64,000 nucleotides of DNA from Patescibacteria group bacterium (GCA_041649475.1 JBAZNA010000001.1:264612-328611); one strand, 5' to 3'; counted from the first letter of the stretch, positions 3,321 through 64,000 are shown. Numbers and translations are program-made. The notes: generated from the letters alone by a model not told the origin.

Positions 3321-3394
3321 TGCGCTCGGATGGACTCGGACCATCGACCCCTGCCTTATAAGGGCAGTGCTCTAACCAACTGAGCTACGAGCGC
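3321..3394 (-). tRNA. tRNA with anticodon UAU (Ile, AUA-decoding type). CCA is not encoded and the T-loop has C at position 55
   Basis: Reverse complement folds as a cloverleaf: GCGCTCG-TA-GCTC-AGTTGGTTA-GAGC-A-CTGCC-CTTATAA-GGCAG-GGGTC-GATGG-TCCGAGT-CCATC-CGAGCGC-A. Acceptor, D and anticodon stems are perfect. Confidence 0.75.
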
Positions 3395-4045: not shown

Positions 4046-4585
4046 ATGTTGGATAATTGGAAAATTTTAAAAAAAGAAACCGCGTTTAAAAATAAATGGC
4101 GGCAGGTTGATAGGTGGGATATTCAGTTCCCCGACGGATCACAAAAAGATTTTTATTTTACCGTCAGTCCTGATTTTGTATTTGTTATCGCGCTCGCGGC
4201 GGATAAAAATATTGTTTTGATTAATCAATATTTTATCCAGTCCGATGAAAATGTTTTGACCCTGCCTGCCGGATATCTTGATGACGGTGAAACTCCACTC
4301 GCGACAGCCAAACGGGAGCTCTTGGAAGAAACCGGCTACGAAGCGAAAGAATGGATGGAACTGGGGACGCAACATGCGGGTAAATGGACCACCAACAAGG
4401 TTCATTTTGTCCTGGCGTTAGGCGCTTATAAAAAAGGTGAGCAGGATTTGGAGGTTAGTGAGTATATAGAAGTGATTGAAAGGAGCGTGACGGATGTTAA
4501 AGAAATGTTAAGAGCAGGAAAATTTGGTGAAGTTTACGCCGTTGCCGGCTTGTATCTCGCTTTAGATTATCTAAATAAATTATAA
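4046..4585 (+). CDS. NUDIX hydrolase (ADP-ribose pyrophosphatase-like); native low-GC copy
   Basis: Nudix box GYLDDGETPLATAKRELLEETG. Confidence 0.8.
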   Translation: MLDNWKILKKETAFKNKWRQVDRWDIQFPDGSQKDFYFTVSPDFVFVIALAADKNIVLINQYFIQSDENVLTLPAGYLDDGETPLATAKRELLEETGYEAKEWMELGTQHAGKWTTNKVHFVLALGAYKKGEQDLEVSEYIEVIERSVTDVKEMLRAGKFGEVYAVAGLYLALDYLNKL

Positions 4586-4666
4586 AAACATTATATCTTA
4601 TGATATAAACTCATTCATTCGGAAATGAAATTATAAATAATTTCATTTCTCTCATTCATTTCGTTT

Positions 4667-5359
4667 ATGAACGCAATCATTCTTTGCGGCGGTTTGTCCA
4701 CGCGCTTAAAAGACATCACCAAAAGCATTCCGAAAATCTTGCTTGATATAAAAGGCCGGACGGTTTTGGATTGGCAACTGGAGAAATTAAAAAAAGTCGG
4801 GATTAACGAGGTGGTTTTGGCGGCCGGACACCTGTCGGATGTTTTGCAAACCATGGTGGGCGAAGAGCGGCTGGGTGTGAAATTGATCTACGCCATTGAA
4901 CCGGAACGGCTCGGCACCGGCGGCGCCATAAAATATGCCTGGAGTTATACACCGCACCAAGCTGACCCGGTTATTATTTTAAACGGCGACATTCTCACGC
5001 ACATTGATTTGGGCGACATGATCGGCAAATTAAAACCGGAAAGCGAAGGTTTGGTTTTGGGATCAAAAGTTGACGATGCTTTTACCTATGGCACTTTGGA
5101 GTTTGATGCCAAAGATAATCACCTGAAGCAGTTTAAGGAAAAAGCCGGTTTGCATGAACCGGGCTACATCAACGGCGGTTTTTATATTTTCAATAAATCC
5201 GCCAAACAGTATTTTCCCAATCAAAACGCCTTTAGCATTGAATATGACGTTTTTCCGTTTATGAAAGATCTGTTCGTATATCCGTCGGATGAACCGTGGA
5301 TTGACATCGGCGTGCCGGAGCGTCTGGAGTGGGCCAAAAATAATTGGACTCAAAGTTAA
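4667..5359 (+). CDS. Sugar-phosphate nucleotidyltransferase (NTP_transferase family)
   Basis: N-terminal AIILCGGLSTRL...KPIL signature of sugar-1-P nucleotidyltransferases. Confidence 0.7.
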   Translation: MNAIILCGGLSTRLKDITKSIPKILLDIKGRTVLDWQLEKLKKVGINEVVLAAGHLSDVLQTMVGEERLGVKLIYAIEPERLGTGGAIKYAWSYTPHQADPVIILNGDILTHIDLGDMIGKLKPESEGLVLGSKVDDAFTYGTLEFDAKDNHLKQFKEKAGLHEPGYINGGFYIFNKSAKQYFPNQNAFSIEYDVFPFMKDLFVYPSDEPWIDIGVPERLEWAKNNWTQS

Positions 5360-6258
5360 ATATGTCTTTTAATAAAAAAGTCACGGTGATTTCGGTCTTG
5401 ATAATTTTGGGCATGGCCGCCTACGGCGCCCTGCGTGTTTATAATAAATTGCATCCGAAATTTACTCCAATTCCAGCAAAGCCCGAGTTGACTATTACCA
5501 TTATTCCGGGTTGGAATTTAGGCCAGGTTGAGGATTATTTTATCAAGCAGGGCTTGGCCAAGGGTCCGTTTTTGGACAAAATAATGGTGCCGCCGGCAAT
5601 TGAAATTTCACTAAAGCGTTCTTTGCCTGCGGATATCTTGACTGATCCGGATAATCCGCCTTTAAAAGTTTTAAAAGACAAGCCATGGTTTGTCAGTTAT
5701 GAAGGGTATTTGGCGCCGGATACTTACCGGGTTTTTGCGGACGCGTCTATTACCAGCACCCTGATGAAATTAATTAAAGAACGCGATTCGCAATTTACGG
5801 AAAAAATGTATCAGGACACGGATGATTTTTGGCGCCGTGTTTATAATAACAAAATCGAGACGCCTTTGAACGTTCACCAGCTTTTGACCATGGCCAGCAT
5901 AATTGAAAAAGAAGTCAGGGATGGTGCAGACAGGGTGAAAGTGGCGGATATTTTATGGCGCCGATATTTAAAGGGCTGGGCATTGCAGGTTGATTCCAGT
6001 GTGCATTACGCGGTTGATAAGAGTGGCACTGTTTTTACCACTGACAAGGAACGAAGCATTGATTCGCCGTGGAATACCTATAAATATCCGGGCTTGCCGA
6101 CCGGACCGATTTGCAACCCGGGCTTGTCGTCAATTATGTCCGCGCTCTATCCGGAGCCGAATAATTTTTGGTATTTTATGACTGATAAAGACGGGCAGGT
6201 GCATTATGCGAAGACGCTTGATGAACAGAATTATAATGTAAATAAGTATTTGCGCTAG
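5344..6258 (+). CDS. mltG: Endolytic murein transglycosylase MltG (YceG family). The start is possibly at 5362
   Basis: N-terminal TM segment, EGYLAPDTYRV and ASIIEKE motifs, and C-terminal YAKTLDEQNYNV are characteristic of YceG/MltG. Confidence 0.8.
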   Translation: MDSKLNMSFNKKVTVISVLIILGMAAYGALRVYNKLHPKFTPIPAKPELTITIIPGWNLGQVEDYFIKQGLAKGPFLDKIMVPPAIEISLKRSLPADILTDPDNPPLKVLKDKPWFVSYEGYLAPDTYRVFADASITSTLMKLIKERDSQFTEKMYQDTDDFWRRVYNNKIETPLNVHQLLTMASIIEKEVRDGADRVKVADILWRRYLKGWALQVDSSVHYAVDKSGTVFTTDKERSIDSPWNTYKYPGLPTGPICNPGLSSIMSALYPEPNNFWYFMTDKDGQVHYAKTLDEQNYNVNKYLR

Positions 6259-6259
6259 T

Positions 6260-7372
6260 ATGCTCACTTCCACATTTGACTACCAATTACCAAAAGAAGC
6301 GATTGCCCAAGTGCCGGCTGAACCGAGGGATTCTTCCAAGCTGATGGTGGTTGATAGAAAAGATAAAACAACCCAGGATCGGAATTTTTCTGATATTGGC
6401 GAATATCTGGGAACAGGCGATTTGCTGGTTTGGAATAACACCAAGGTCTTTAAAGCGCGTCTGCGCGGACAGATTACGTTGGACGAAGCGGCCGACGGCA
6501 TTGATAAAAAAATCAAATCAACCGATAAAATTTGGAACTCGGCGCCGGTGGAGATTTTTTTAATCAGGCCCACGGAAAACAACAAGGTCTGGAAAGTGCT
6601 GGCCAAGCCGGGGAAAAAATTGCGATTGGGAATGAAGGTTGTTTTCACCGAAGATTTTTTTTGTGAGGTTTTACTGGGGGAAGATGATGGAACTTTTTTA
6701 GTGCAGTTTGATGATGACGACATGGCAGTGCGGGCCAAGGCGAACAAATACGGCGAGGTGCCGACGCCGCCGTATATCAGCGTTGGCATGGGTGATAATC
6801 TGGAAGACAAGTATCAGACCGTTTACGCTTCGCGCGAGGGTTCGGTGGCCGCGCCTACGGCCGGGTTTCATTTTACGCCGGAGTTGATTGAAAAATTGGA
6901 AAAGAAAGGCGTGCAATTTGCCGAGGTGACTTTGCATGTCGGTCTAGGGACATTTTTACCGGTTAAAACCGAAAAAGTTGAAGATCATAAAATGCACAGC
7001 GAGTGGGTGGAGGTGACGGCAAAGAACGTTGATTTGATAAATCAAGCCAAAGCGGAGGGCAGACGAGTGGTGGCGGTTGGAACTACGACCGTGCGGACGC
7101 TGGAAGGAATTGTGATGCTACAAAAAAATATGAGCGGCACGCCGCCGCAGTTAAAACCTTATTCGGGCGATATAAATATTTTTATCACCCCGGGGTTTGA
7201 ATTTAAAGTCGTTGATGTTTTGATTACGAATTTCCATTTGCCGAAGTCAACGTTGCTGATGCTGGTGTCGGCTTTTGTTGGTGATACACAGTTTATATTA
7301 AATTGTTATCAAAAAGCCATAAATTTTGGCTATAGATTTTATAGTTTTGGCGACGCAATGCTGATAAAATAA
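6260..7372 (+). CDS. queA: S-adenosylmethionine:tRNA ribosyltransferase-isomerase
   Basis: FDYQLPKEAIAQ.P..PRDSSKLMVV N-terminus and overall QueA pattern. Confidence 0.85.
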   Translation: MLTSTFDYQLPKEAIAQVPAEPRDSSKLMVVDRKDKTTQDRNFSDIGEYLGTGDLLVWNNTKVFKARLRGQITLDEAADGIDKKIKSTDKIWNSAPVEIFLIRPTENNKVWKVLAKPGKKLRLGMKVVFTEDFFCEVLLGEDDGTFLVQFDDDDMAVRAKANKYGEVPTPPYISVGMGDNLEDKYQTVYASREGSVAAPTAGFHFTPELIEKLEKKGVQFAEVTLHVGLGTFLPVKTEKVEDHKMHSEWVEVTAKNVDLINQAKAEGRRVVAVGTTTVRTLEGIVMLQKNMSGTPPQLKPYSGDINIFITPGFEFKVVDVLITNFHLPKSTLLMLVSAFVGDTQFILNCYQKAINFGYRFYSFGDAMLIK

Positions 7373-7414
7373 ACCAGCGATTTATTTTTAGATTATTAGT
7401 GAGCAAACAAAAAA

Positions 7415-7477
7415 CCACCTGCTCGTTACTTTCCAACCCTATTGAAAAGTATCGAGCATTACAGGTGGTTTTTTTAT
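7415..7477 (+). terminator. queA intrinsic terminator: 7-bp stem CCACCTG/CAGGTGG around a 40-nt loop, then T9
   Basis: AAAAAACCACCTG...CAGGTGGTTTTTTTATT read directly. Confidence 0.65.
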
Positions 7478-7526
7478 TACCTCGCCGCCACACCCCAAAA
7501 TTCGGGTGTGGCGGGAGGATGGACCG

Positions 7527-8060
7527 CTACGGGAACATCGCGTCGTACATCGCGATGACCGTCTCATGGACGCTCTCGGCCACGAGACGCTCGCGATCGT
7601 AGGCCGCGACTCCCAGCTGGACGTCGTATTCGCCCGGATCGAGCTTGATGCTGGCGAGCTCCTCCGGCGTCAACTCGAAGGCGAACTGGAGTGCTGGTTG
7701 GGTGGCCAGTGAGCCCGGCTCGTTGATGTAGTGAAAAACTGCGGCCACCATCTCGAGCCGGTCGGGCGAGACCGCGAGACCAAGCTCCTCGTTCAGCTTG
7801 CGGATGGCCGCGTTCTTGGGGAGCTCATCCTTCCCCGCCCGCCCGCCGAACCACCACGCTCCGCGCCGGGGCTGGCACCGTCGCGTGGCCAGGTAGAAAA
7901 GCTTGGCCGCCTTGTTCACGCCGACGATGTCGACAACGTAGATCGGCATGAGCAACTTGATTGGCTCAAAAAGCTGGTCCGGAATCCGTTCGTACTGGCC
8001 GACACCGGCCCCTTCGTCGATCACTGTTATGACCGGCAGAAACCTAACCTCGACTGTCAT
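7527..8060 (-). CDS. NUDIX hydrolase encoded in a ~60% GC island (foreign composition)
   Basis: Nudix box GGRAGKDELPKNAAIRKLNEELGL. Strong SD AAGGAGGGGG 5 nt upstream of the ATG. GC content is sharply above the flanks. A GC-rich hairpin (7484-7515) follows the stop codon. Confidence 0.8.
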   Translation of the reverse strand: MTVEVRFLPVITVIDEGAGVGQYERIPDQLFEPIKLLMPIYVVDIVGVNKAAKLFYLATRRCQPRRGAWWFGGRAGKDELPKNAAIRKLNEELGLAVSPDRLEMVAAVFHYINEPGSLATQPALQFAFELTPEELASIKLDPGEYDVQLGVAAYDRERLVAESVHETVIAMYDAMFP

Positions 8061-8162
8061 GGCCCCCTCCTTTCTTGGGAGTTGAGGGTTTGGTCCGTTT
8101 TTGGCGAACTGACAATGGTAACATTGCTAAAAGGTTTTGTCAAGATCTATACACTCATAAAT

Positions 8163-8192
8163 AAAAAATCCGAGCTTGCGCCCGGATTTTTT
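8163..8192 (-). terminator. rplK intrinsic terminator (hairpin ATCCGGGC-GCAA-GCTCGGAT followed by T6 on the minus strand)
   Basis: AAAAAATCCGAGCTTGCGCCCGGATTTTTT read directly. Confidence 0.6.
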
Positions 8193-8204
8193 AAATATAT
8201 TTTT

Positions 8205-8630
8205 TTAACCTTCCACCGTCACACCCATATTTCTGGCCGTGCCTTCCACCATCTTCATTGCCGCTTCAACCGTGTGGCAGTTTAAGTCAGGCATTTTCTT
8301 TTCGGCAATCTGACGAACCTGGGCCTTGGTGATTTTGCCAACCTTATCTTGTAACGGCTTGGCCGAACCTTTGGCGATTCCAGCTGCTTTCTTAATCAAT
8401 TCCGGCACCGGCGGGGTTTTCATTATGAAAGTGAAACTTCTGTCTTCATAGATTGAAATAACCACCGGTACTATTTCGCCTTTTTTGTCCTGGGTTTTCT
8501 CGTTAAATTCCTTGCAAAAGCCCTGGATGTTTACGCCGTGCTGGCCCAAAGCCGGACCGATTGGAGGCGCCGGGTTGGCAGCTCCGCCCGGGATCTGCAA
8601 TTTGATCTGTGTGAGTAGTTTTTTAGCCAT
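8205..8630 (-). CDS. rplK: 50S ribosomal protein L11
   Basis: [27 protein letters not shown]... is canonical uL11. Confidence 0.95.
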
Positions 8631-8642
8631 ATATATTATTTA

Positions 8643-9188
8643 TTATATTTTTTTAACTTGCATCGCGTCCAACTCAACCGGGGTTTCGCGTCCGAACATG
8701 GTGATTAACACCTTGATCTTGCCGCGTTCTTCGTCAACATTATTAATTTTTCCTTCAAAATTCTTAAATGGTCCGTCGGTAATGCGCACTGGGTCATTAA
8801 TTTCCAGATCAATTTTGTGTTGGGGTTCGGCCGCACTCATGCGTTTGAGCAAGTTGTCAACTTCGGATTGATCAACCGGAGTAGGGGTGGTGCCGGAACC
8901 GACGAAGCCGGTGACATTGGGGGTATTTCGCACCACATACCAGGAGTCATCGGTTACGACCATCTCCACCAGAATATACCCGGGGAAGATTTTTTCGTCA
9001 ACCGTAGTCCGCTTACCATTTTTTATTTTTATCTTTTTTTCTTTTGGAACCAAAACATTAAAAATTTTATCCTGCATGGCAAATGACTCAATACGCTGTT
9101 CCAAATTGTGTTTTACATTTTCTTCATAGCCGCTGTAGGTGTGAAGCACATACCAGCGCTTGCCGAGGTTTAACGTCTGTTTAGCCAT
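8643..9188 (-). CDS. nusG: Transcription termination/antitermination protein NusG
   Basis: WYVLHTYSGYE...FPGYILVEM... and C-terminal KOW domain (PFKNFEGKI..VDEERGKIKVLI.MFGRETPVEL). Confidence 0.9.
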   Translation of the reverse strand: MAKQTLNLGKRWYVLHTYSGYEENVKHNLEQRIESFAMQDKIFNVLVPKEKKIKIKNGKRTTVDEKIFPGYILVEMVVTDDSWYVVRNTPNVTGFVGSGTTPTPVDQSEVDNLLKRMSAAEPQHKIDLEINDPVRITDGPFKNFEGKINNVDEERGKIKVLITMFGRETPVELDAMQVKKI

Positions 9189-9200
9189 ACATTCTCCTTA

Positions 9201-9389
9201 TTATTTGGTAATTAAAGTTGTTATACCTGAATTAAAAATATAATCCAGCAAACTGAAAAAAACAGCAAAGCCCAAGCTTAAACCGATAACCAAAACACTG
9301 TAGTTAATGGTCTGTTTTTTGGTCGGCCAGCTCACCTTTTTCATTTCATGAAATGAACCGACAAAGTAATTTTTTATTGCCTCTATCAT
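9201..9389 (-). CDS. secE: Preprotein translocase subunit SecE
   Basis: 62-aa single-TM protein (KKVSWPTKKQTINYSVLVIGLSLGFAVFF) immediately upstream of nusG. Confidence 0.8.
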   Translation of the reverse strand: MIEAIKNYFVGSFHEMKKVSWPTKKQTINYSVLVIGLSLGFAVFFSLLDYIFNSGITTLITK

Positions 9390-12670: not shown

Positions 12671-13765
12671 ATGTTAAACCTGGGCAAGTTTTCCCCGCGC
12701 AGTTTTGACTGGAAACTTTTTGTTTCGGTTCTGCTTTTAATTCTGATCGGGCTCTCTGCAATCTACAGCGTTGATCTTTCCCGCGGTTCCGGTCTGGTTG
12801 ATTTTAAAAAACAATTACTCGCCTTCGGAGTTGGTTTGGTTTTGCTCACACTGGTAAGCATGATCCAATACAAGGTGTGGCAATATTCGGCCAAATGGTT
12901 TTTTTTGGCCGCGCTTTTACTTTTGATTGCAGTTTTATTTTTCGGTTCTACCATCCGCGGCACGCGCGGCTGGTTTGCTTTTACCGGCTTTTCTTTTCAG
13001 CCGGTTGAGGTGGCAAAAATCGGAATTATTTTAATGCTCGCTTATATTATTTCAAAATTCGGACGGCGTTTTGAGCGGCCCCTGTTTTTTTTCGGCACTT
13101 TGGTCATCACTCTGGCGCTGATTTTTTTGGTAATGCTTCAGCCGGATTTGGGCTCGGCGGTTCTCCTGGGCGCGATTTGGTTCGGCCTGATGTGGGCGGT
13201 CGGTAGCCGGCGTCTTTTTTTAATTTTATTGGTGTCGGTAATTATGGCTCTTGGTGTCAGCGGCTGGTTTTTCTTTTTGAAAGATTATCAGAAAGACCGC
13301 ATCACCACTTTTATCAATCCGAGCAGGGATCCGCTCGGATCCGGATACAACATAACTCAATCCACGATTGCCATCGGCGCCGGCAAATTATTTGGCCGCG
13401 GTTTGGGTTTTGGCTCGCAAAGCCAGATGAAATTTTTGCCGGAAGCGCAAACCGACTTCATATTTTCCGTAATCGGCGAGGAACTTGGTTTGGCCGGAGT
13501 GTGTCTGCTCTTGGTTTTATTCGGCATCATTTTTTGGCGGTTGATTGTTTTGATCAGAAGCGCTGAAGATGACTTTGTTTCAGCGGCCGCCACCGGCATT
13601 TTGATATTGTTTTTTGTCCAATTTATAACCAATGTCGCCGCAACCATCGGTCTTTTGCCAATCACCGGCGTCACCTTGCCTTTTGTCAGCTATGGCGGCT
13701 CATCGCTGATTATTAACCTGTTTTTGGTGGGACTACTGGAAAGCATGCAGGTTAAAAAGTATTAA
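12671..13765 (+). CDS. SEDS-family peptidoglycan glycosyltransferase (FtsW/RodA)
   Basis: Ten-TM architecture with conserved QPVE.AK, FLPE..TDFIFSVIGEELG and LP.TG.TLPFVSYGGSS motifs. Confidence 0.9.
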   Translation: MLNLGKFSPRSFDWKLFVSVLLLILIGLSAIYSVDLSRGSGLVDFKKQLLAFGVGLVLLTLVSMIQYKVWQYSAKWFFLAALLLLIAVLFFGSTIRGTRGWFAFTGFSFQPVEVAKIGIILMLAYIISKFGRRFERPLFFFGTLVITLALIFLVMLQPDLGSAVLLGAIWFGLMWAVGSRRLFLILLVSVIMALGVSGWFFFLKDYQKDRITTFINPSRDPLGSGYNITQSTIAIGAGKLFGRGLGFGSQSQMKFLPEAQTDFIFSVIGEELGLAGVCLLLVLFGIIFWRLIVLIRSAEDDFVSAAATGILILFFVQFITNVAATIGLLPITGVTLPFVSYGGSSLIINLFLVGLLESMQVKKY

Positions 13766-22934: not shown

Positions 22935-24614
22935 ATGAGAATATCATGGTTAAAAAATTTAATACCTGCTTTTTTGTTGGTGGGTGTTTTAGGTTTTTTA
23001 TTTTTTCTAATCAACGGTGCTGTTGCGGCTCCAGTTGCTCCCAGAAGTCCAACCTCAACTGTCGTGTCAGCACAGTCCATTTCTCTTACTTGGAGTACAA
23101 CCACTGCCGATAGTGGACAATATTGGGTTCTACGCAGAGCCACGTCTTCGGTAGGAGTGGGTGGTATAACACACGTAGCCACTTCTTCTACAAGCACAGT
23201 TAGCTATACATTTACGGGATTAGCCACTAACACTTTATATTTTTTAGCCGTAGCTTCCGGTGATACTACAGCCGCCACTTCATCTTACGCCACTTCCAGC
23301 GCGGTTTACACCTGGGCCGCTACCCCGGGCACTCCCACAGTAACCTCTTCGGCTGCTACCTCTTTAACCATTACTATTAATCCGACGAGCAACCCCACAA
23401 CCGCTTCCACTACCTATGTGGTGCATGATGCGGTAGCTCATAAATTTTTACAGGCTGACTCTTCCTGGGGCACGGCCACTACTACTCTTACCTATACTCA
23501 ACTCGGCGGAGCATCAGGCACCACCACCGCTGCCACTGCCAATGCTCACTACACCATCAGTGTAGCGGCGGTCAATGGTGACAGTTCGGCTACCACCAGC
23601 TATAGCACCGCGGCCAGTACATACGTAGTTGTCAGTACTCCCTCATCAGCGGCTGTGACTGCGGCTGCTAATGGCTTTACCTTTTCCTGGACCGGCGATT
23701 CTGGTTCTGAATTTTATGCCGAAGATGAAACCGGCGCTACCAATAGCGGCTGGACCACAGATACGTCTTATGTGGTTAGCGGTGTAAACTGCGGCACTGC
23801 TCACACCTTCAGAGTCAAAGCCAGAAACAGCGATACCACCGAATCCGGCTGGTCTTCTGAAGTTAGCGCTACAACCAACGCTTGTGGTGGCGGTGTTGTA
23901 ACTGGCGGCGGCGGAGGCAGTGGATCTTCAAGCAATATAGCAATACCAAATGTTCCGGTTTCCAATCTAGCTGCGGCTCAAGCCGCGGCCACAGCCGCCG
24001 GCTGTCCGGCTCTTTCTGCCGGTGACATGGTTAAGGTAACCGGCAAAGCAGCCATCTACTCCATAAACAGCAATCTCCAGGTTCTCTATTTCCCTTCTGG
24101 AGATGAATTCAAGAGTTGGAATGTTGACAACAGCTATGGCGGCTACAAATCAGTCAGCCAAACCTGTTTTGATGCCCTGTCTGTCCCGTCAAGCTATCCG
24201 GGCGCTGTCAATTACCGCCCTGGCTCATATATCGTCAAGAGACCGTCTTCTGACCAGTTATACGTGGTAGAACCGGGCAATGCTCTGGCTACAATCAGCG
24301 TTGCTGACGCCAAAGCCCTCTATGGCGACAGCTACAAGGTAATGACTGTAGCTGATCCGTTCTGGCCGCATTACATCAATCGCGGTTCGGCTATCTCCGG
24401 CGCTGCCCATCAAGGCATGTTAATCAGCAAAGACACTAAAACCTGGTATGTTGATGCCGGCAATGTCCTGCGTGAAGTGACTGCTAACGGCATGACTGCC
24501 AATAGATTCAAGACCAACTTTGTCCATACCGTTGCTGATTCGTATTTGACCGGGTTTACGACTGGGTCGCTCATAAATGATGTCCTATCATCTCTAAGCG
24601 ATAGAACCCAATAA
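22935..24614 (+). CDS. Secreted Thr/Ser/Ala-rich cell-surface protein with repeated fibronectin-III-like modules and a globular C-terminal domain
   Basis: N-terminal signal/anchor. Repeats of the type ATS.TSTSLT..W......Y.V....; Thr+Ser+Ala+Gly exceed 50% of residues. A Gly-rich linker (GGGVVTGGGGGSGSS) precedes the C-terminal domain. Confidence 0.6.
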   Translation: MRISWLKNLIPAFLLVGVLGFLFFLINGAVAAPVAPRSPTSTVVSAQSISLTWSTTTADSGQYWVLRRATSSVGVGGITHVATSSTSTVSYTFTGLATNTLYFLAVASGDTTAATSSYATSSAVYTWAATPGTPTVTSSAATSLTITINPTSNPTTASTTYVVHDAVAHKFLQADSSWGTATTTLTYTQLGGASGTTTAATANAHYTISVAAVNGDSSATTSYSTAASTYVVVSTPSSAAVTAAANGFTFSWTGDSGSEFYAEDETGATNSGWTTDTSYVVSGVNCGTAHTFRVKARNSDTTESGWSSEVSATTNACGGGVVTGGGGGSGSSSNIAIPNVPVSNLAAAQAAATAAGCPALSAGDMVKVTGKAAIYSINSNLQVLYFPSGDEFKSWNVDNSYGGYKSVSQTCFDALSVPSSYPGAVNYRPGSYIVKRPSSDQLYVVEPGNALATISVADAKALYGDSYKVMTVADPFWPHYINRGSAISGAAHQGMLISKDTKTWYVDAGNVLREVTANGMTANRFKTNFVHTVADSYLTGFTTGSLINDVLSSLSDRTQ

Positions 24615-40751: not shown

Positions 40752-40804
40752 GAAATTGCCCGATTTTTGTATACAAAATTTGTAGATAAAAACAGGGCAA
40801 TTTC
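40752..40804 (+). promoter_or_regulatory. Nested palindrome immediately upstream of the high-GC methyltransferase RBS: 10-bp IR GAAATTGCCC / GGGCAATTTC enclosing the palindrome TTTTGTATACAAAA
   Basis: Read directly; function unknown (operator, hairpin or insertion boundary). Confidence 0.4.
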
Positions 40805-40831
40805 GCCCAAAAACCTTGAAGGAGGCACGAC

Positions 40832-41740
40832 ATGTCCAATTCTCGCAGTGGTCCAGCTCTTAGCGAACAGGTGGAGGCGTTGGGGAGGTTGCCGGTGGAT
40901 TTCGCGGAGGTGGACTGTCTGCCTCCCGAGATCAAGAAGCTCATCGCTGATCCAGTCACGTGGAGTGACCCCCGGGTGCGGGGGTACACCACCACGAAAT
41001 CCACGATCGCCCACATCCTCGCCGAGAACCCGGCTTCGGATCGGATGCTCCAGATTGTCTACCCGGACACCAACGGTTCGCCCTTGGTCAACGGTTTGGA
41101 CAGGTTCTTGAGCCGGTCGCTCTCGGGCCAGGCGCTTCGTGATCGTCTGGACTTCTGTTCGGACTGGCTGGCGGACAACTTCGCCCGTCGCGGCAAGCGC
41201 ATCATTGACCTTGGCGGCGGCTCCGGTTCGTACGCGTTCAGGGTCTTTCGTGTCCACGGTTTGATTCCCGCAAAGTTTGTGTGGGACATTTTGGACCTTG
41301 ACCTTGAGGCCCTCAATGTCGCCCGGATGCGGGCGCATGACACCGGCCTGGACGGCGTCATCCAGGTCCGCCAGGGTAACTTCAAGCACGACAGCGCCAT
41401 TCTGCCCGAGAAGGCCGACTACGCTGTTCTCATTGGAGTTCTCTGCGGCATGGACAAGGACACTGCTAGGGACGTGCTCTGCCGTGCCAAGGATCACCTC
41501 AAGCCCGGCGGTGAGATGCTCGCCGCGACCCTCCTGCAGAAGGCCTTTGATGAAGACCCTCGCACCTTCCGCATCCTCTGCAACGTCGGCGGCTGGCAAC
41601 TCCGCCCCAAGACGCCGGAGCAGGTTGCTGAAATCTTCCAGCTTGCCGGTTGGGAGATCATCGGCGATATGATGTCCGAGCGTCCCGACACCAAAGTCGG
41701 CGGCGGTCAGTACGCCATCGTGCACGCCCGCGCCCTCTAG
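40832..41740 (+). CDS. Class I SAM-dependent methyltransferase encoded in a ~62% GC island (foreign composition)
   Basis: Motif I IIDLGGGSGSYA. Strong SD AAGGAGGCACGACATG. Own GC-rich terminator at 41767-41807. No DPPY/NPPY motif, so more likely a small-molecule or RNA methyltransferase than a DNA methyltransferase. Confidence 0.75.
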   Translation: MSNSRSGPALSEQVEALGRLPVDFAEVDCLPPEIKKLIADPVTWSDPRVRGYTTTKSTIAHILAENPASDRMLQIVYPDTNGSPLVNGLDRFLSRSLSGQALRDRLDFCSDWLADNFARRGKRIIDLGGGSGSYAFRVFRVHGLIPAKFVWDILDLDLEALNVARMRAHDTGLDGVIQVRQGNFKHDSAILPEKADYAVLIGVLCGMDKDTARDVLCRAKDHLKPGGEMLAATLLQKAFDEDPRTFRILCNVGGWQLRPKTPEQVAEIFQLAGWEIIGDMMSERPDTKVGGGQYAIVHARAL

Positions 41741-44802: not shown

Positions 44803-45495
44803 ATGAAAAGAGGAGGAAGGAAACCCTTGGGAAGGGTTAAAATTAAGTGGTCTTCTAATTTTGCGTATGCAATTGGGCTTATTGCGACTGATGGATGCTT
44901 ATCAAAAGATGGTAGGCATGTAGTTTTTGTTTCAAAGGATTTAGAGCAGATAGAAAATTATCAGAGAACTTTAGGTATTTCATGTTCCATAGGGCGGAAA
45001 AGCCGGGGAGGCGAAAGTGAAAGAAAATATTTTGTTCTTCAGTTCGGGGATGTCCTTTTCTATAAATTTTTATTATCAGTAGGTCTTACTCCTGCCAAAT
45101 CGAAAATTATTGGTGAGCTTGAAATACCAGATGAATATTTTTTCGATTTTCTGCGTGGACATTTGGATGGAGACGGGACGTTTTATTCGTATTGGGATCC
45201 GCGTTGGCATTCCAGTTTTATGTTTTATACTGTTTTTCTTTCAGCGAGCAAGAAACATATTGATTGGATATCCTCTAAATTATACCAATTTTTGGAAATC
45301 AAGGGGCACATAGTGAATAATAACGACTTAATTTACAGTTTGAAATTTGCCAAAAATGAATCTTTAAAATTATTGCCAAAATTGTATTATTCTGATAAAA
45401 TAATTTATCTGTCCAGGAAATATAATAAGATACAAAAAGCTCTGCATATTGAAAACAAGCACAATAATGAGTCAAAAAATGCCCGGGTGCTGTAA
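44803..45495 (+). mobile_element. Free-standing double-motif LAGLIDADG homing endonuclease gene; its stop codon lies inside the downstream tRNA-Leu
   Basis: Two LAGLIDADG motifs, YAIGLIATDGCLSKDG and FLRGHLDGDGTF, about 100 aa apart. No intron or intein context is visible. Confidence 0.7.
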
Positions 45496-61771: not shown

Positions 61772-61868
61772 TAATTTGTAAGATAATTTTTATAAAAAAA
61801 TATGCGCTCCGTCTTTGTCTCGTGTGAGATTTGGACGAAGCGCGTGTCGTGCCTCCTTGTGGCTACTG

Positions 61869-62450
61869 CTAGACCCTGTGAGCGTAGGCCTTGATGGCTT
61901 TGGGGATGATCCCCGTGCGGTGCGGCTCCACGGTGTTTTCGGGCAACTGGTCCACCGGGTACCAGTCGTGCCTTTCGTCTTCGCGCGGAGAACCGTCGCA
62001 GTGGACGAGGTAGATCCTGGAGACGCCGGAGCCGCGGATCTCGCCTTTCTTCCAGTCCACGTATTCGCCGATGTACCGGAAGGAGATGATCGGAGTGCCA
62101 AACTCCCGCTCAAGGCGGTTGGCCACATCACGTTCGGTCTCGCCCGGCCGGAAGGCCGACCCGGGCGCATGCCACTCGAGCGGGTAGACCTCATCCGCCG
62201 CGCGCTTGCGCAGATAGATTTCGATCTTGGTGGTGGAGGGGTTGACCCGGAGTGCCACACCCTCAAAGAACATATTCCACGAGAGCCGGGCGATCGCGTT
62301 GTAGAGGTTGGTGCCGTAGGGCTTGTACGGATCGAGTCCGTTGAGCACATCCGCGGCGAATTCCCTGTATTCCTTGCTATCTGGGCCGAGACCCGCAAGC
62401 AGTTTGAGGGCTTCCTCAAGGATGCGCTTTGCATAACCCTTGTCCAACAT
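61869..62450 (-). CDS. Hypothetical protein in a ~60% GC island; possible divergent Nudix-fold protein
   Basis: Strong SD GGAGGA upstream and GC far above the flanks. The segment APGSAFRPGETERDVANRLEREFG loosely resembles a Nudix box (G.E......A.REL.EE.G) but is one residue short; low confidence in the family call. Confidence 0.55.
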   Translation of the reverse strand: MLDKGYAKRILEEALKLLAGLGPDSKEYREFAADVLNGLDPYKPYGTNLYNAIARLSWNMFFEGVALRVNPSTTKIEIYLRKRAADEVYPLEWHAPGSAFRPGETERDVANRLEREFGTPIISFRYIGEYVDWKKGEIRGSGVSRIYLVHCDGSPREDERHDWYPVDQLPENTVEPHRTGIIPKAIKAYAHRV

Positions 62451-63596: not shown

Positions 63597-63914
63597 TTTG
63601 AGTGCGCTAATGATTAACCTCAAACACCGCAAACAAAGCACCTCATACAATTCGTTAATCTTCTAAGTCCCGAAAGGGATACTGGAAAGAGAAAAGAGCA
63701 ACTCCAAATTGGGTTTCTCTTTTTTCTTTCTCGCAAAGGCCGCCTAGAGGTGGCACAAGAAAGAAAGTGAACCTTGACAACACAAACGTGACAAAGACCA
63801 TATTAAAGTCTATTCAAACCAAACGGTTAGGCGCGATTCGTCGCGCCGTACCAAACAGTAACAGTAATAAATCCAAACAAACTCGTTCATATGAACGAGA
63901 TCAACTCTTTTTTA

Positions 63915-64000
63915 AGAGTTTGATCCTAGCTCAGGATGAACGCTGGCGGCGTGTTTAAGGCATGCAAGTCGGGGGACGGCCTTGTAGCAATACGAGGTAC
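63915..64000 (+). rRNA. 16S ribosomal RNA, 5' end (continues beyond the window)
   Basis: AGAGTTTGATCCTAGCTCAGGATGAACGCTGGCGGCGTG matches the universal 16S 5' end and the 27F primer site. Confidence 0.9.

Follow-up and report, generated by a model that had tools for sequence, protein, structure and literature searches.

A GC-rich, Shine-Dalgarno-led Nudix gene between rplK and queA of a Magasanikbacteria genome, probably acquired horizontally as a single-gene unit

Introduction

Why does a GC-rich gene for a Nudix hydrolase stand directly downstream of rplK, at the place where rplA normally follows, in a genome of much lower GC content? The question is raised by a stretch of 64,000 nucleotides from a Patescibacteria group bacterium (GCA_041649475.1 JBAZNA010000001.1:264612-328611), referred to below as the window, in which all positions are counted from the first letter. 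The gene, called island 1 together with its own signals, lies on the minus strand after the secE-nusG-rplK run, which is intact as first described, and is convergent with queA. The initial annotation, made from the sequence alone, had taken it for a canonical Nudix hydrolase at the usual position of rplA and for one of three foreign single-gene insertions in the window. Our analysis favors a somewhat different answer: island 1 was probably acquired horizontally within this lineage, as one intact and probably functional gene, and it would have landed in a spacer from which rplA was already absent.

Composition and Translation Signals of Island 1

The open reading frame (ORF) of island 1 has a GC content of 63%, with values of 0.67, 0.38 and 0.82 at the first, second and third codon positions (GC1, GC2 and GC3, respectively), and the GC-rich Nudix island reported after rplK is thereby confirmed. 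The native reference set, which consists of 58 ORFs of the window, has a mean GC content of 0.437±0.034 (maximum 0.50) and a mean GC3 of 0.474±0.054 (maximum 0.56); the GC3 of island 1 lies more than 6 standard deviations above this mean. A comparison of codon adaptation indices, proposed at the outset, points in the same direction. With an index of this type based on native codon usage, island 1 scores 0.52, about 8 standard deviations below the native ORFs (0.70±0.023, minimum 0.64), and the relative synonymous codon usage of island 1 is uncorrelated with that of the native genes (r = 0.06). The difference extends to the protein, in which Gly, Ala, Arg and Pro make up a fraction of 0.31 (natives 0.22) and Phe, Tyr, Met, Ile, Asn and Lys a fraction of 0.23 (natives 0.32).

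The ribosome-binding site sets island 1 apart as well. All three islands of the window carry a perfect AAGGAGG Shine-Dalgarno (SD) sequence, compared with 1 of the 58 native ORFs, most of which are without any SD core. In the related loci presented below, an SD core (GGAG or GAGG) is found upstream of none of 78 rplK, none of 48 secE, none of 15 gyrB and one of 49 queA genes, and upstream of 13 of 79 nusG genes. This Magasanikbacteria lineage hardly uses SD sites, and loss of the anti-SD motif has been described for many Parcubacteria (preprint). The 16S rRNA gene begins within the window (63908-64000, plus strand) and runs past the window end before its 3′ end and the anti-SD are reached. The sole non-island ORF of the window with a full AAGGAGG site is a free-standing LAGLIDADG-like gene after the DAGK gene (44803-45495, plus strand; 230 aa, GC 0.34, GC3 0.32), which may be a mobile gene of the homing-endonuclease type.

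The rplK/queA Junction in Related Genomes

Relatives were collected by scanning species-representative genomes with the NusG of the window. This gave 80 loci (L003-L082) with 80-91% NusG identity, mostly labelled Magasanikbacteria or mislabelled metagenome-assembled genomes; the source genome of the window belongs to Magasanikbacteria, within the candidate phyla radiation (CPR). The run gyrB-secE-nusG-rplK, with queA-yceG convergent behind it, is kept in 51 of the 80 loci, representing 51 species. In 22 of these 51 loci the spacer between rplK and queA measures only 39-130 bp, and the short spacers hold a single bidirectional terminator, which was seen directly in twelve of them. The spacers of the other 29 loci span 177-2683 bp and contain varied cargo, including a Vut_1 transporter, a DNA alkylation repair enzyme, PP2C, EamA and an ECF sigma factor, among others. 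No homologue of the island-1 protein was detected by tblastn in any of the 80 loci and, hence, at any of the 51 junctions.

Two of the filled junctions contain GC-rich DNA of their own. In L003 (12700-13370) it reaches 76% GC and includes an ORF (12703-13197) with a GC3 of 0.88, and in L022 (11250-11800) it is about 60% GC. Neither sequence gave a Pfam or Rfam match.

Anatomy of the Island-1 Unit

Read along the minus strand, rplK is followed by a terminator, an AT-rich leader with a promoter-like site, the SD site, the ORF, a GC-rich hairpin and a second, terminator-like hairpin (Table 1). Because of this order of elements, the GC-rich DNA spans almost exactly the interval from the SD site to the hairpin, two signals that had already been recognized and that are found as described. 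The GC-rich hairpin folds with −32.5 kcal/mol (z = −5.3), more stably than every one of 200 shuffled sequences. The long hairpin next to queA (−39.1 kcal/mol, z = −7.9) looks like a native bidirectional terminator that would serve both queA and the island transcript. On the other side, the terminator after rplK (−21.3 kcal/mol, z = −6.3) has the architecture of the single terminator of the empty-site relatives. The promoter-like site in the leader is the predicted promoter of island 1, from which the gene would be expressed.

Table 1. Coordinates of island 1, its surroundings and the other features discussed; positions refer to the window unless a locus is named.
Feature	Position	Strand	Basis
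Island-1 ORF, 177 aa, GDP-mannose-mannosyl-hydrolase-like Nudix hydrolase	7527..8060	-	ORF listing, Pfam, profile and fold matches, composition
SD site AAGGAGGGGG	8063..8072	-	2 nt upstream of ATG (8058-8060); read from sequence
Sigma-70-like promoter (predicted), TTGACA-17-TACCAT, TG preceding the -10 box	8115..8143	-	Consensus scan, 10/12 matches; in AT-rich leader
GC-rich hairpin directly 3′ of island-1 stop codon, without U-tract	7480..7518	-	Folding energy; also inverted repeat I3
Long hairpin between A-run and T-run (AAAAAACCACCTG ... CAGGTGGTTTTTT)	7409..7474	.	Folding energy; inverted repeat I2; abuts queA end
Native-type bidirectional terminator, flanked by A-run and T-run, directly 3′ of rplK	8157..8198	.	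Folding energy
rplK (ribosomal protein L11), last in the secE-nusG-rplK run	8205..8630	-	Pfam Ribosomal_L11_N, Ribosomal_L11
nusG, intact	8643..9188	-	ORF listing and Pfam
secE, intact	9201..9389	-	ORF listing and Pfam
queA, convergent with rplK, other flank of the insertion site	6260..7372	+	Pfam Queuosine_synth, 417 bits; flanking order common to 51 species
Native low-GC Nudix gene, NudE-like	4046..4585	+	Pfam, 54 bits; NCBIfam NudE, 87 bits (closest, below cut-off)
Island-2 SAM-dependent methyltransferase, GC-rich, SD-led	40832..41740	+	Pfam match; island at about 40.8-41.8 kb
Methyltransferase orthologues	L092 4364-5236; L094 6001-6894; L098 763-1656
Island-3 ORF, 193 aa, divergent Nudix-like protein between a KH-domain gene and trmD	61869..62450	-	Pfam NUDIX, 17.0 bits, below cut-off 21.1; island at about 61.8-62.5 kb
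Sister-subclade loci with rplA	L025, L032, L039, L052, L065, L069, L070, L072, L074, L075, L077, L078, L081		L1 queries

Family and Proposed Function of the Island-1 Protein

The island-1 protein matches Pfam NUDIX (PF00293) over residues 42-134 with 29.9 bits (cut-off 21.1). Its Nudix box, G73-x5-E79-x7-R87-K88-L-N-E91-E92-L-G94-L95, departs once from the pattern G-x5-E-x7-R-E-U-x-E-E-x-G-U, at Lys88, which replaces the Glu of the "RE" pair. The superfamily assignment made initially is therefore upheld, with a box that is near-canonical rather than canonical.

Relatives of this protein are rare. A word-indexed search of 5.8 billion clusters returned only the island-1 protein itself, a family-profile search added just four relatives, and a metagenome scan with an alignment of island 1 and its homologue P0002 found none. 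An exhaustive HMMER search of 1.84 billion representatives yielded 373 proteins at E ≤ 1e-3, 73 of them at E ≤ 1e-10, the best being P0002 with 46% identity, which makes it the closest relative among 15 billion proteins. The members are mostly of about 180 aa and found on short metagenomic contigs; fusions to cupin, GNAT or Dabb domains occur in a few. In an alignment of 32 family sequences, L57, R60, G72, G73, L140, E144 and Y145 are invariant, and all seven are present in the window protein.

Several lines of evidence link the family to GDP-mannose mannosyl hydrolase. When the family profile was compared with solved structures, the E. coli enzyme (1RYA) came first at 1.6e-11, and the next solved Nudix protein followed at 8.5e-7. 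The AlphaFold2 model of the island-1 protein (predicted local distance difference test score, pLDDT, 93; predicted template modelling score 0.87) was used for a Foldseek search of the PDB, in which the top eight matches were all GDP-mannose mannosyl hydrolase; 310 chains matched at E ≤ 1e-3, every listed one being a Nudix protein. The GDP- and metal-binding residues of the E. coli enzyme, D22, R37, R52, R65 and E70, align with D44, R60, R74, R87 and E92, all invariant or nearly so in the 32-sequence alignment. As for genomic context, the distant homologue P0153 is encoded between two epimerase/dehydratase genes (Pfam Epimerase, GDP_Man_Dehyd) in a glycosyltransferase cluster, one gene away from a mannose-1-phosphate guanylyltransferase-type gene, and the gene of the closest homologue, P0002, adjoins GT2, DegT and epimerase genes.

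Because of these Pfam, profile, fold, residue and context results, and of the NCBIfam score given below, we file the protein in the Nudix superfamily as a relative of GDP-mannose mannosyl hydrolase that falls outside the equivalog family of that enzyme. It probably acts on a GDP-sugar or another nucleoside diphosphate (NDP)-sugar. The analysis identifies a rare, uncharacterised Nudix family that may act on cell-envelope sugar nucleotides.

The window contains a native low-GC Nudix gene too, as first reported. It is native in composition and has homologues at the same position in relatives. This gene is not a paralogue of island 1, as its hhalign overlap with the island-1 family is limited to 26 residues of the Nudix box.

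Origin of Island 1

A lineage-specific acquisition is favored because island 1 is absent from the 51 related sites, has no orthologue above 46% identity, carries foreign-looking translation signals and is atypical in composition. A self-contained unit, made of the AT-rich leader with its promoter-like site, the SD site, the ORF and the GC-rich hairpin, would have been acquired horizontally and inserted into the short spacer of the convergent rplK and queA genes, so that it would now lie between two native-type bidirectional terminators. Its product would hydrolyze a GDP-sugar or a related NDP-sugar, and this hydrolysis might trim or recycle the sugar-nucleotide pool used for cell-envelope glycans. 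Donor, direction and timing are inferred: the gene probably came from a GC-richer bacterium that uses SD sites, possibly another member of the Patescibacteria. Uptake through competence pili has been proposed as a route for transfers into Patescibacteria (PMC12455944). Island 1 would be an ordinary gene acquisition of known kinds, a Nudix superfamily member transferred as a single gene into a CPR genome.

Several observations weigh against this origin or against the proposed function. A repeat scan found no convincing flanking repeats or target-site duplication around island 1, and no integrase, transposase or tRNA gene adjoins it, the nearest tRNA being located at 3321-3394. No donor was found, with nothing above 46% identity in any searched collection, and no match to island 1 was obtained among phage, plasmid and viral sets (tblastn on plasmids and phages; viral-contig scan). 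Atypical composition is no proof of recent arrival, as the methyltransferase of island 2, conserved in gene order and yet GC-rich, makes clear. On the functional side, the NCBIfam model for GDP-mannose mannosyl hydrolase (NF011963) gives 19.6 bits, below its cut-off of 146. His124 of the E. coli enzyme, the catalytic base, has no evident counterpart in the island-1 family: around His124 and Tyr103 the alignments stop or diverge, and the family has the invariant L140..E144-Y145 and no conserved His. Finally, island 1 stands alone between rplK and queA with no adjoining GDP-sugar pathway, the sole candidate for such a pathway nearby being an NTP_transferase gene about 2 kb away.

GC-Rich Genes Elsewhere in the Window and in Relatives

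Of the alternatives, the one that survives best holds that island 1 has long resided in the Magasanikbacteria gene pool, or passes between Patescibacteria, and is kept GC-rich and SD-led by selection or by repeated exchange; its composition would then be uninformative about a recent foreign origin. We regard this as unlikely, although not negligibly so, and its case is made chiefly by the other two islands, both of which exist as first noticed.

The methyltransferase of island 2 has 64 homologues, many at 57-72% identity, and is encoded directly upstream of a HisKA_7TM kinase gene in all four contexts retrieved (L092, L094, L098 and the P0161 contig). Orthologues located upstream of this kinase gene are 58-72% identical to it. 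The full argS-methyltransferase-kinase-bactofilin-DAGK order of the window recurs in the P0161 contig only, and L092 has the kinase-bactofilin-DAGK part. Identities between the window and L092 are 63.6% for the methyltransferase, 70.5% for the kinase, 63.9% for DAGK and 59% for bactofilin. As judged from these values, the divergence of the methyltransferase tracks that of its neighbors, and island 2 is no strain-specific insertion. The notion of three foreign single-gene insertions can thus be kept for island 1, which is atypical and missing from the 51 relatives, but not for a gene whose order is retained in four other genomes.

The GC3 of the methyltransferase nonetheless stands above its background, at 0.78 in the window, 0.64 in L092 and 0.51 in L094, compared with about 0.47, 0.33 and 0.36 for the neighboring genes. 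In three of four genomes it exceeds that of the genome by 0.15-0.31, and the gene carries an SD site where its neighbors have none. Its closest homologues are also rich in Gly, Ala, Arg and Pro. With genes this far diverged, neutral drift toward the composition of the host should already have removed the contrast. Since the methyltransferase keeps its gene order across species that are about 36-40% diverged in protein sequence and its GC3 is still high, either selection or continual replacement might be at work: GC-richness may be kept, for example as a structured, SD-dependent mRNA in an otherwise SD-independent translation system, or such genes may be replaced continually from a GC-rich donor pool, such as a host or GC-rich CPR relatives.

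Island 3 and the island-1 family add to this picture. The island-3 protein scores below the Pfam cut-off and its single-sequence AlphaFold model reaches a pLDDT of 41, so its Nudix fold is putative; the statement that two islands encode Nudix-type folds holds for island 1 and is not borne out for island 3. Homologues of the island-3 protein, 67% and 49% identical, occur in other gene contexts, where they are likewise GC-richer than their neighbors and SD-led, and the island-3 terminator hairpin is conserved in L096. The P0002 gene is itself GC-rich (GC 0.56, GC3 0.71) in a contig of 0.35-0.40 GC whose other genes have a GC3 of 0.25-0.35. Codon usage is correlated among the three islands (r = 0.66-0.82), islands 2 and 3 being most alike (r = 0.82), and a survey attributes about 83% of the transfers into Patescibacteria to other Patescibacteria (PMC12455944).

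Against an old or pooled residence stand the absence of island 1 from the site in all 51 junction-sharing relatives and the lack of any orthologue above 46% identity, while the methyltransferase has many at 60-72%. Moreover, the Uhrbacteria orthologue of the methyltransferase is fully adjusted to its genome (GC3 0.30), and GC-richness is therefore not universal even in that family. We consequently retain the lineage-specific acquisition of island 1 as the better explanation.

The pattern is not confined to the window. About 20 further GC-rich, mostly singleton ORFs were found in 1.27 Mb of related loci, a set to which the GC-rich DNA at the rplK/queA junction of L003 and L022 belongs, and by rough gene calls SD cores precede 9 of 42 GC-rich ORFs in these loci, compared with 52 of 1310 others. 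No known RNA family accounts for the GC-rich islands, the window and eight related loci having yielded just tRNAs and the beginning of the 16S rRNA gene, and viral-contig scans with all three island proteins gave no match. It is conceivable, although we hold it only tentatively, that GC-rich single-gene units with an SD site in front and a hairpin at the end form a recurrent class in Magasanikbacteria, and that GC-rich DNA entered the rplK/queA junction on at least three separate occasions (window, L003 and L022). GC-rich, SD-led genes in an SD-poor lineage could help to trace gene flow in Patescibacteria, and possibly to recognize their hosts, and this broader pattern is the part worth following up.

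A few further observations concern these genes. The exact 14-mer AAGGAGGCACGACA occurs at 40819-40832 (plus strand) and 61845-61858 (minus strand), and two copies were seen in none of 100 shuffles. One copy is the ribosome-binding site of island 2, and the other lies between the stop codon of island 3 and its terminator. The idea that islands 3 and 2 had been neighbors in a donor operon, drawn from this repeat, was downgraded: the further similarity is the own terminator of island 3, and no homologue context pairs the two. Between argS and the SD site of island 2 lies an inverted repeat (GAAATTGCCC ... GGGCAATTTC; 40752-40761 and 40795-40804) with a 33-nt loop, which resembles the long-loop hairpin beside island 1. 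Among the relatives, L032 (845-1420) and L043 (1781-2353) contain homologous ORFs of 190 aa, 41% identical, with a GC3 of about 0.8 in loci of 0.40 and 0.46 GC, both preceded by CAAGGAGGTGC. The moderately GC-rich region at 23.2-24.4 kb of the window is accounted for by a 559-aa fibronectin type III protein (22935-24614, plus strand; GC2 0.58).

Other Explanations

Four other readings are each poorly supported: an assembly error, the displacement of rplA, a function connected with translation and a function in defense. The second and third of these hold that the Nudix gene replaced rplA, or that it is functionally tied to the ribosomal or translation operon, perhaps as a decapping enzyme or an RNA pyrophosphohydrolase. 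What speaks for them is the position of the gene, directly downstream of secE-nusG-rplK and on the same strand, and the appearance of RppH and NudC structures among the lower-ranked fold matches. The distribution of rplA argues otherwise. Queries were E. coli L1 and then the L1 of two of the loci. They detected rplA in only 13 of the 80 loci, all of a sister subclade without the queA junction (Table 1), where it is found 1.5-4 kb downstream of rplK, with 1-5 unrelated, variable genes in between. No L1 match was obtained in the 64-kb window or in the 51 queA-junction loci. Searches with E. coli L10 and L7/L12 likewise gave no match, either in the window or in the loci, although this counts as weak evidence.

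From the 51-locus junction and the distant rplA of the 13 loci, it follows that the rplK-rplA link was broken early in the group and that the island entered a spacer which already existed and is used recurrently. The junction without rplA is ancestral to the subclade of the window, with at least 51 species. Loss of L1 has been recorded in a large group of Parcubacteria (PMC5220378; bioRxiv 10.1101/2022.01.07.475337). The proposal that island 1 stands in place of rplA accordingly fails, and with it goes a tempting but mistaken connection to L1 loss among CPR bacteria. In addition, a terminator separates rplK from the island, which has its own promoter-like site, its best sequence and structure matches are to GDP-mannose mannosyl hydrolase and not to RppH or NudC, and its homologues are found in sugar clusters, not in translation operons. 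Both versions are therefore very improbable.

Still less probable is an anti-phage defense or counter-defense Nudix enzyme that would, for example, deplete nucleotides or signalling molecules. The insertion site does vary between species, the island-1 protein has a weak PADLOC match to PDC-S07 (E = 2.5e-4, 18.7 bits) in the Nudix box only, and the methyltransferase of island 2 matches PADLOC mad2 at 9.7e-16 over its methyltransferase domain. These library matches, however, cover generic domains only, the PHROGs match is to a generic MutT/Nudix family, no partner defense genes are located nearby, and there are no relatives in phage or viral collections.

An assembly chimera or a binning contaminant from a GC-rich organism, as the sudden GC jump by about 20 percentage points within some 600 bp might suggest, is the least credible reading and already largely refuted: a 4421-bp contig (nusG-rplK-Nudix-queA-yceG-NTP_transferase) from an independent Logan assembly of run SRR8542065 is 100% identical to window 4625-9045 across both island-1 junctions, and for this reason the misassembly envisaged by the initial annotation does not apply, while the GC-rich stretch starts at the SD site and ends at a hairpin inside the spacer, between two native-type terminators and with an AT-rich promoter leader, and GC-rich genes of this kind are also seen in unrelated contigs.

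Comparison with Known Systems

In the canonical secE-nusG-rplK-rplA operon, rplA directly follows rplK, whereas the window has island 1 at this place and no rplA there. The other Nudix enzyme of the window, a NudE-type ADP-sugar pyrophosphatase, shares with island 1 the superfamily and a similar length, but the two fall into different families, and the NudE-type gene is native in composition and occupies a conserved position in relatives.

The closest known enzyme is the GDP-mannose mannosyl hydrolase of E. coli (Gmm/NudD/WcaH; PDB 1RYA, 2GT2 and 2I8T). Enzymes of this type split a GDP-sugar into GDP and the free sugar through attack at the sugar C1. It is the best sequence match of the island-1 family, about 10^4-fold better than other solved Nudix proteins, and the best structural match, holding the top eight Foldseek places. 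Both have GGR-x2-KDE at the start of the Nudix box and both lack the Glu of the "RE" pair, and homologues of island 1 adjoin GDP-sugar pathway genes. The differences are nevertheless considerable. Identity is just 22-26%. The island-1 family is extended by about 20 residues at the N-terminus, and its conserved C-terminal helix ends in YD..FP. In place of the His124 region the family has an invariant L-D-P-x-E-Y motif, and the window protein keeps both Glu residues of the "EE" pair, where GDP-mannose mannosyl hydrolase has Ala-Glu.

As a transfer, island 1 resembles the single-gene acquisitions described for Patescibacteria (PMC12455944), with a single transferred gene, a streamlined CPR genome and no mobile-element genes nearby. 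It differs from them in that the unit is delimited to the base, from SD site to hairpin, and in that it occupies a recurrently used junction of core genes, where it is conspicuous in a recipient that hardly uses SD sites. If the favored origin is correct, the window would offer a base-by-base record of how one foreign gene enters the terminator spacer of two core genes in a streamlined, episymbiont-type genome.

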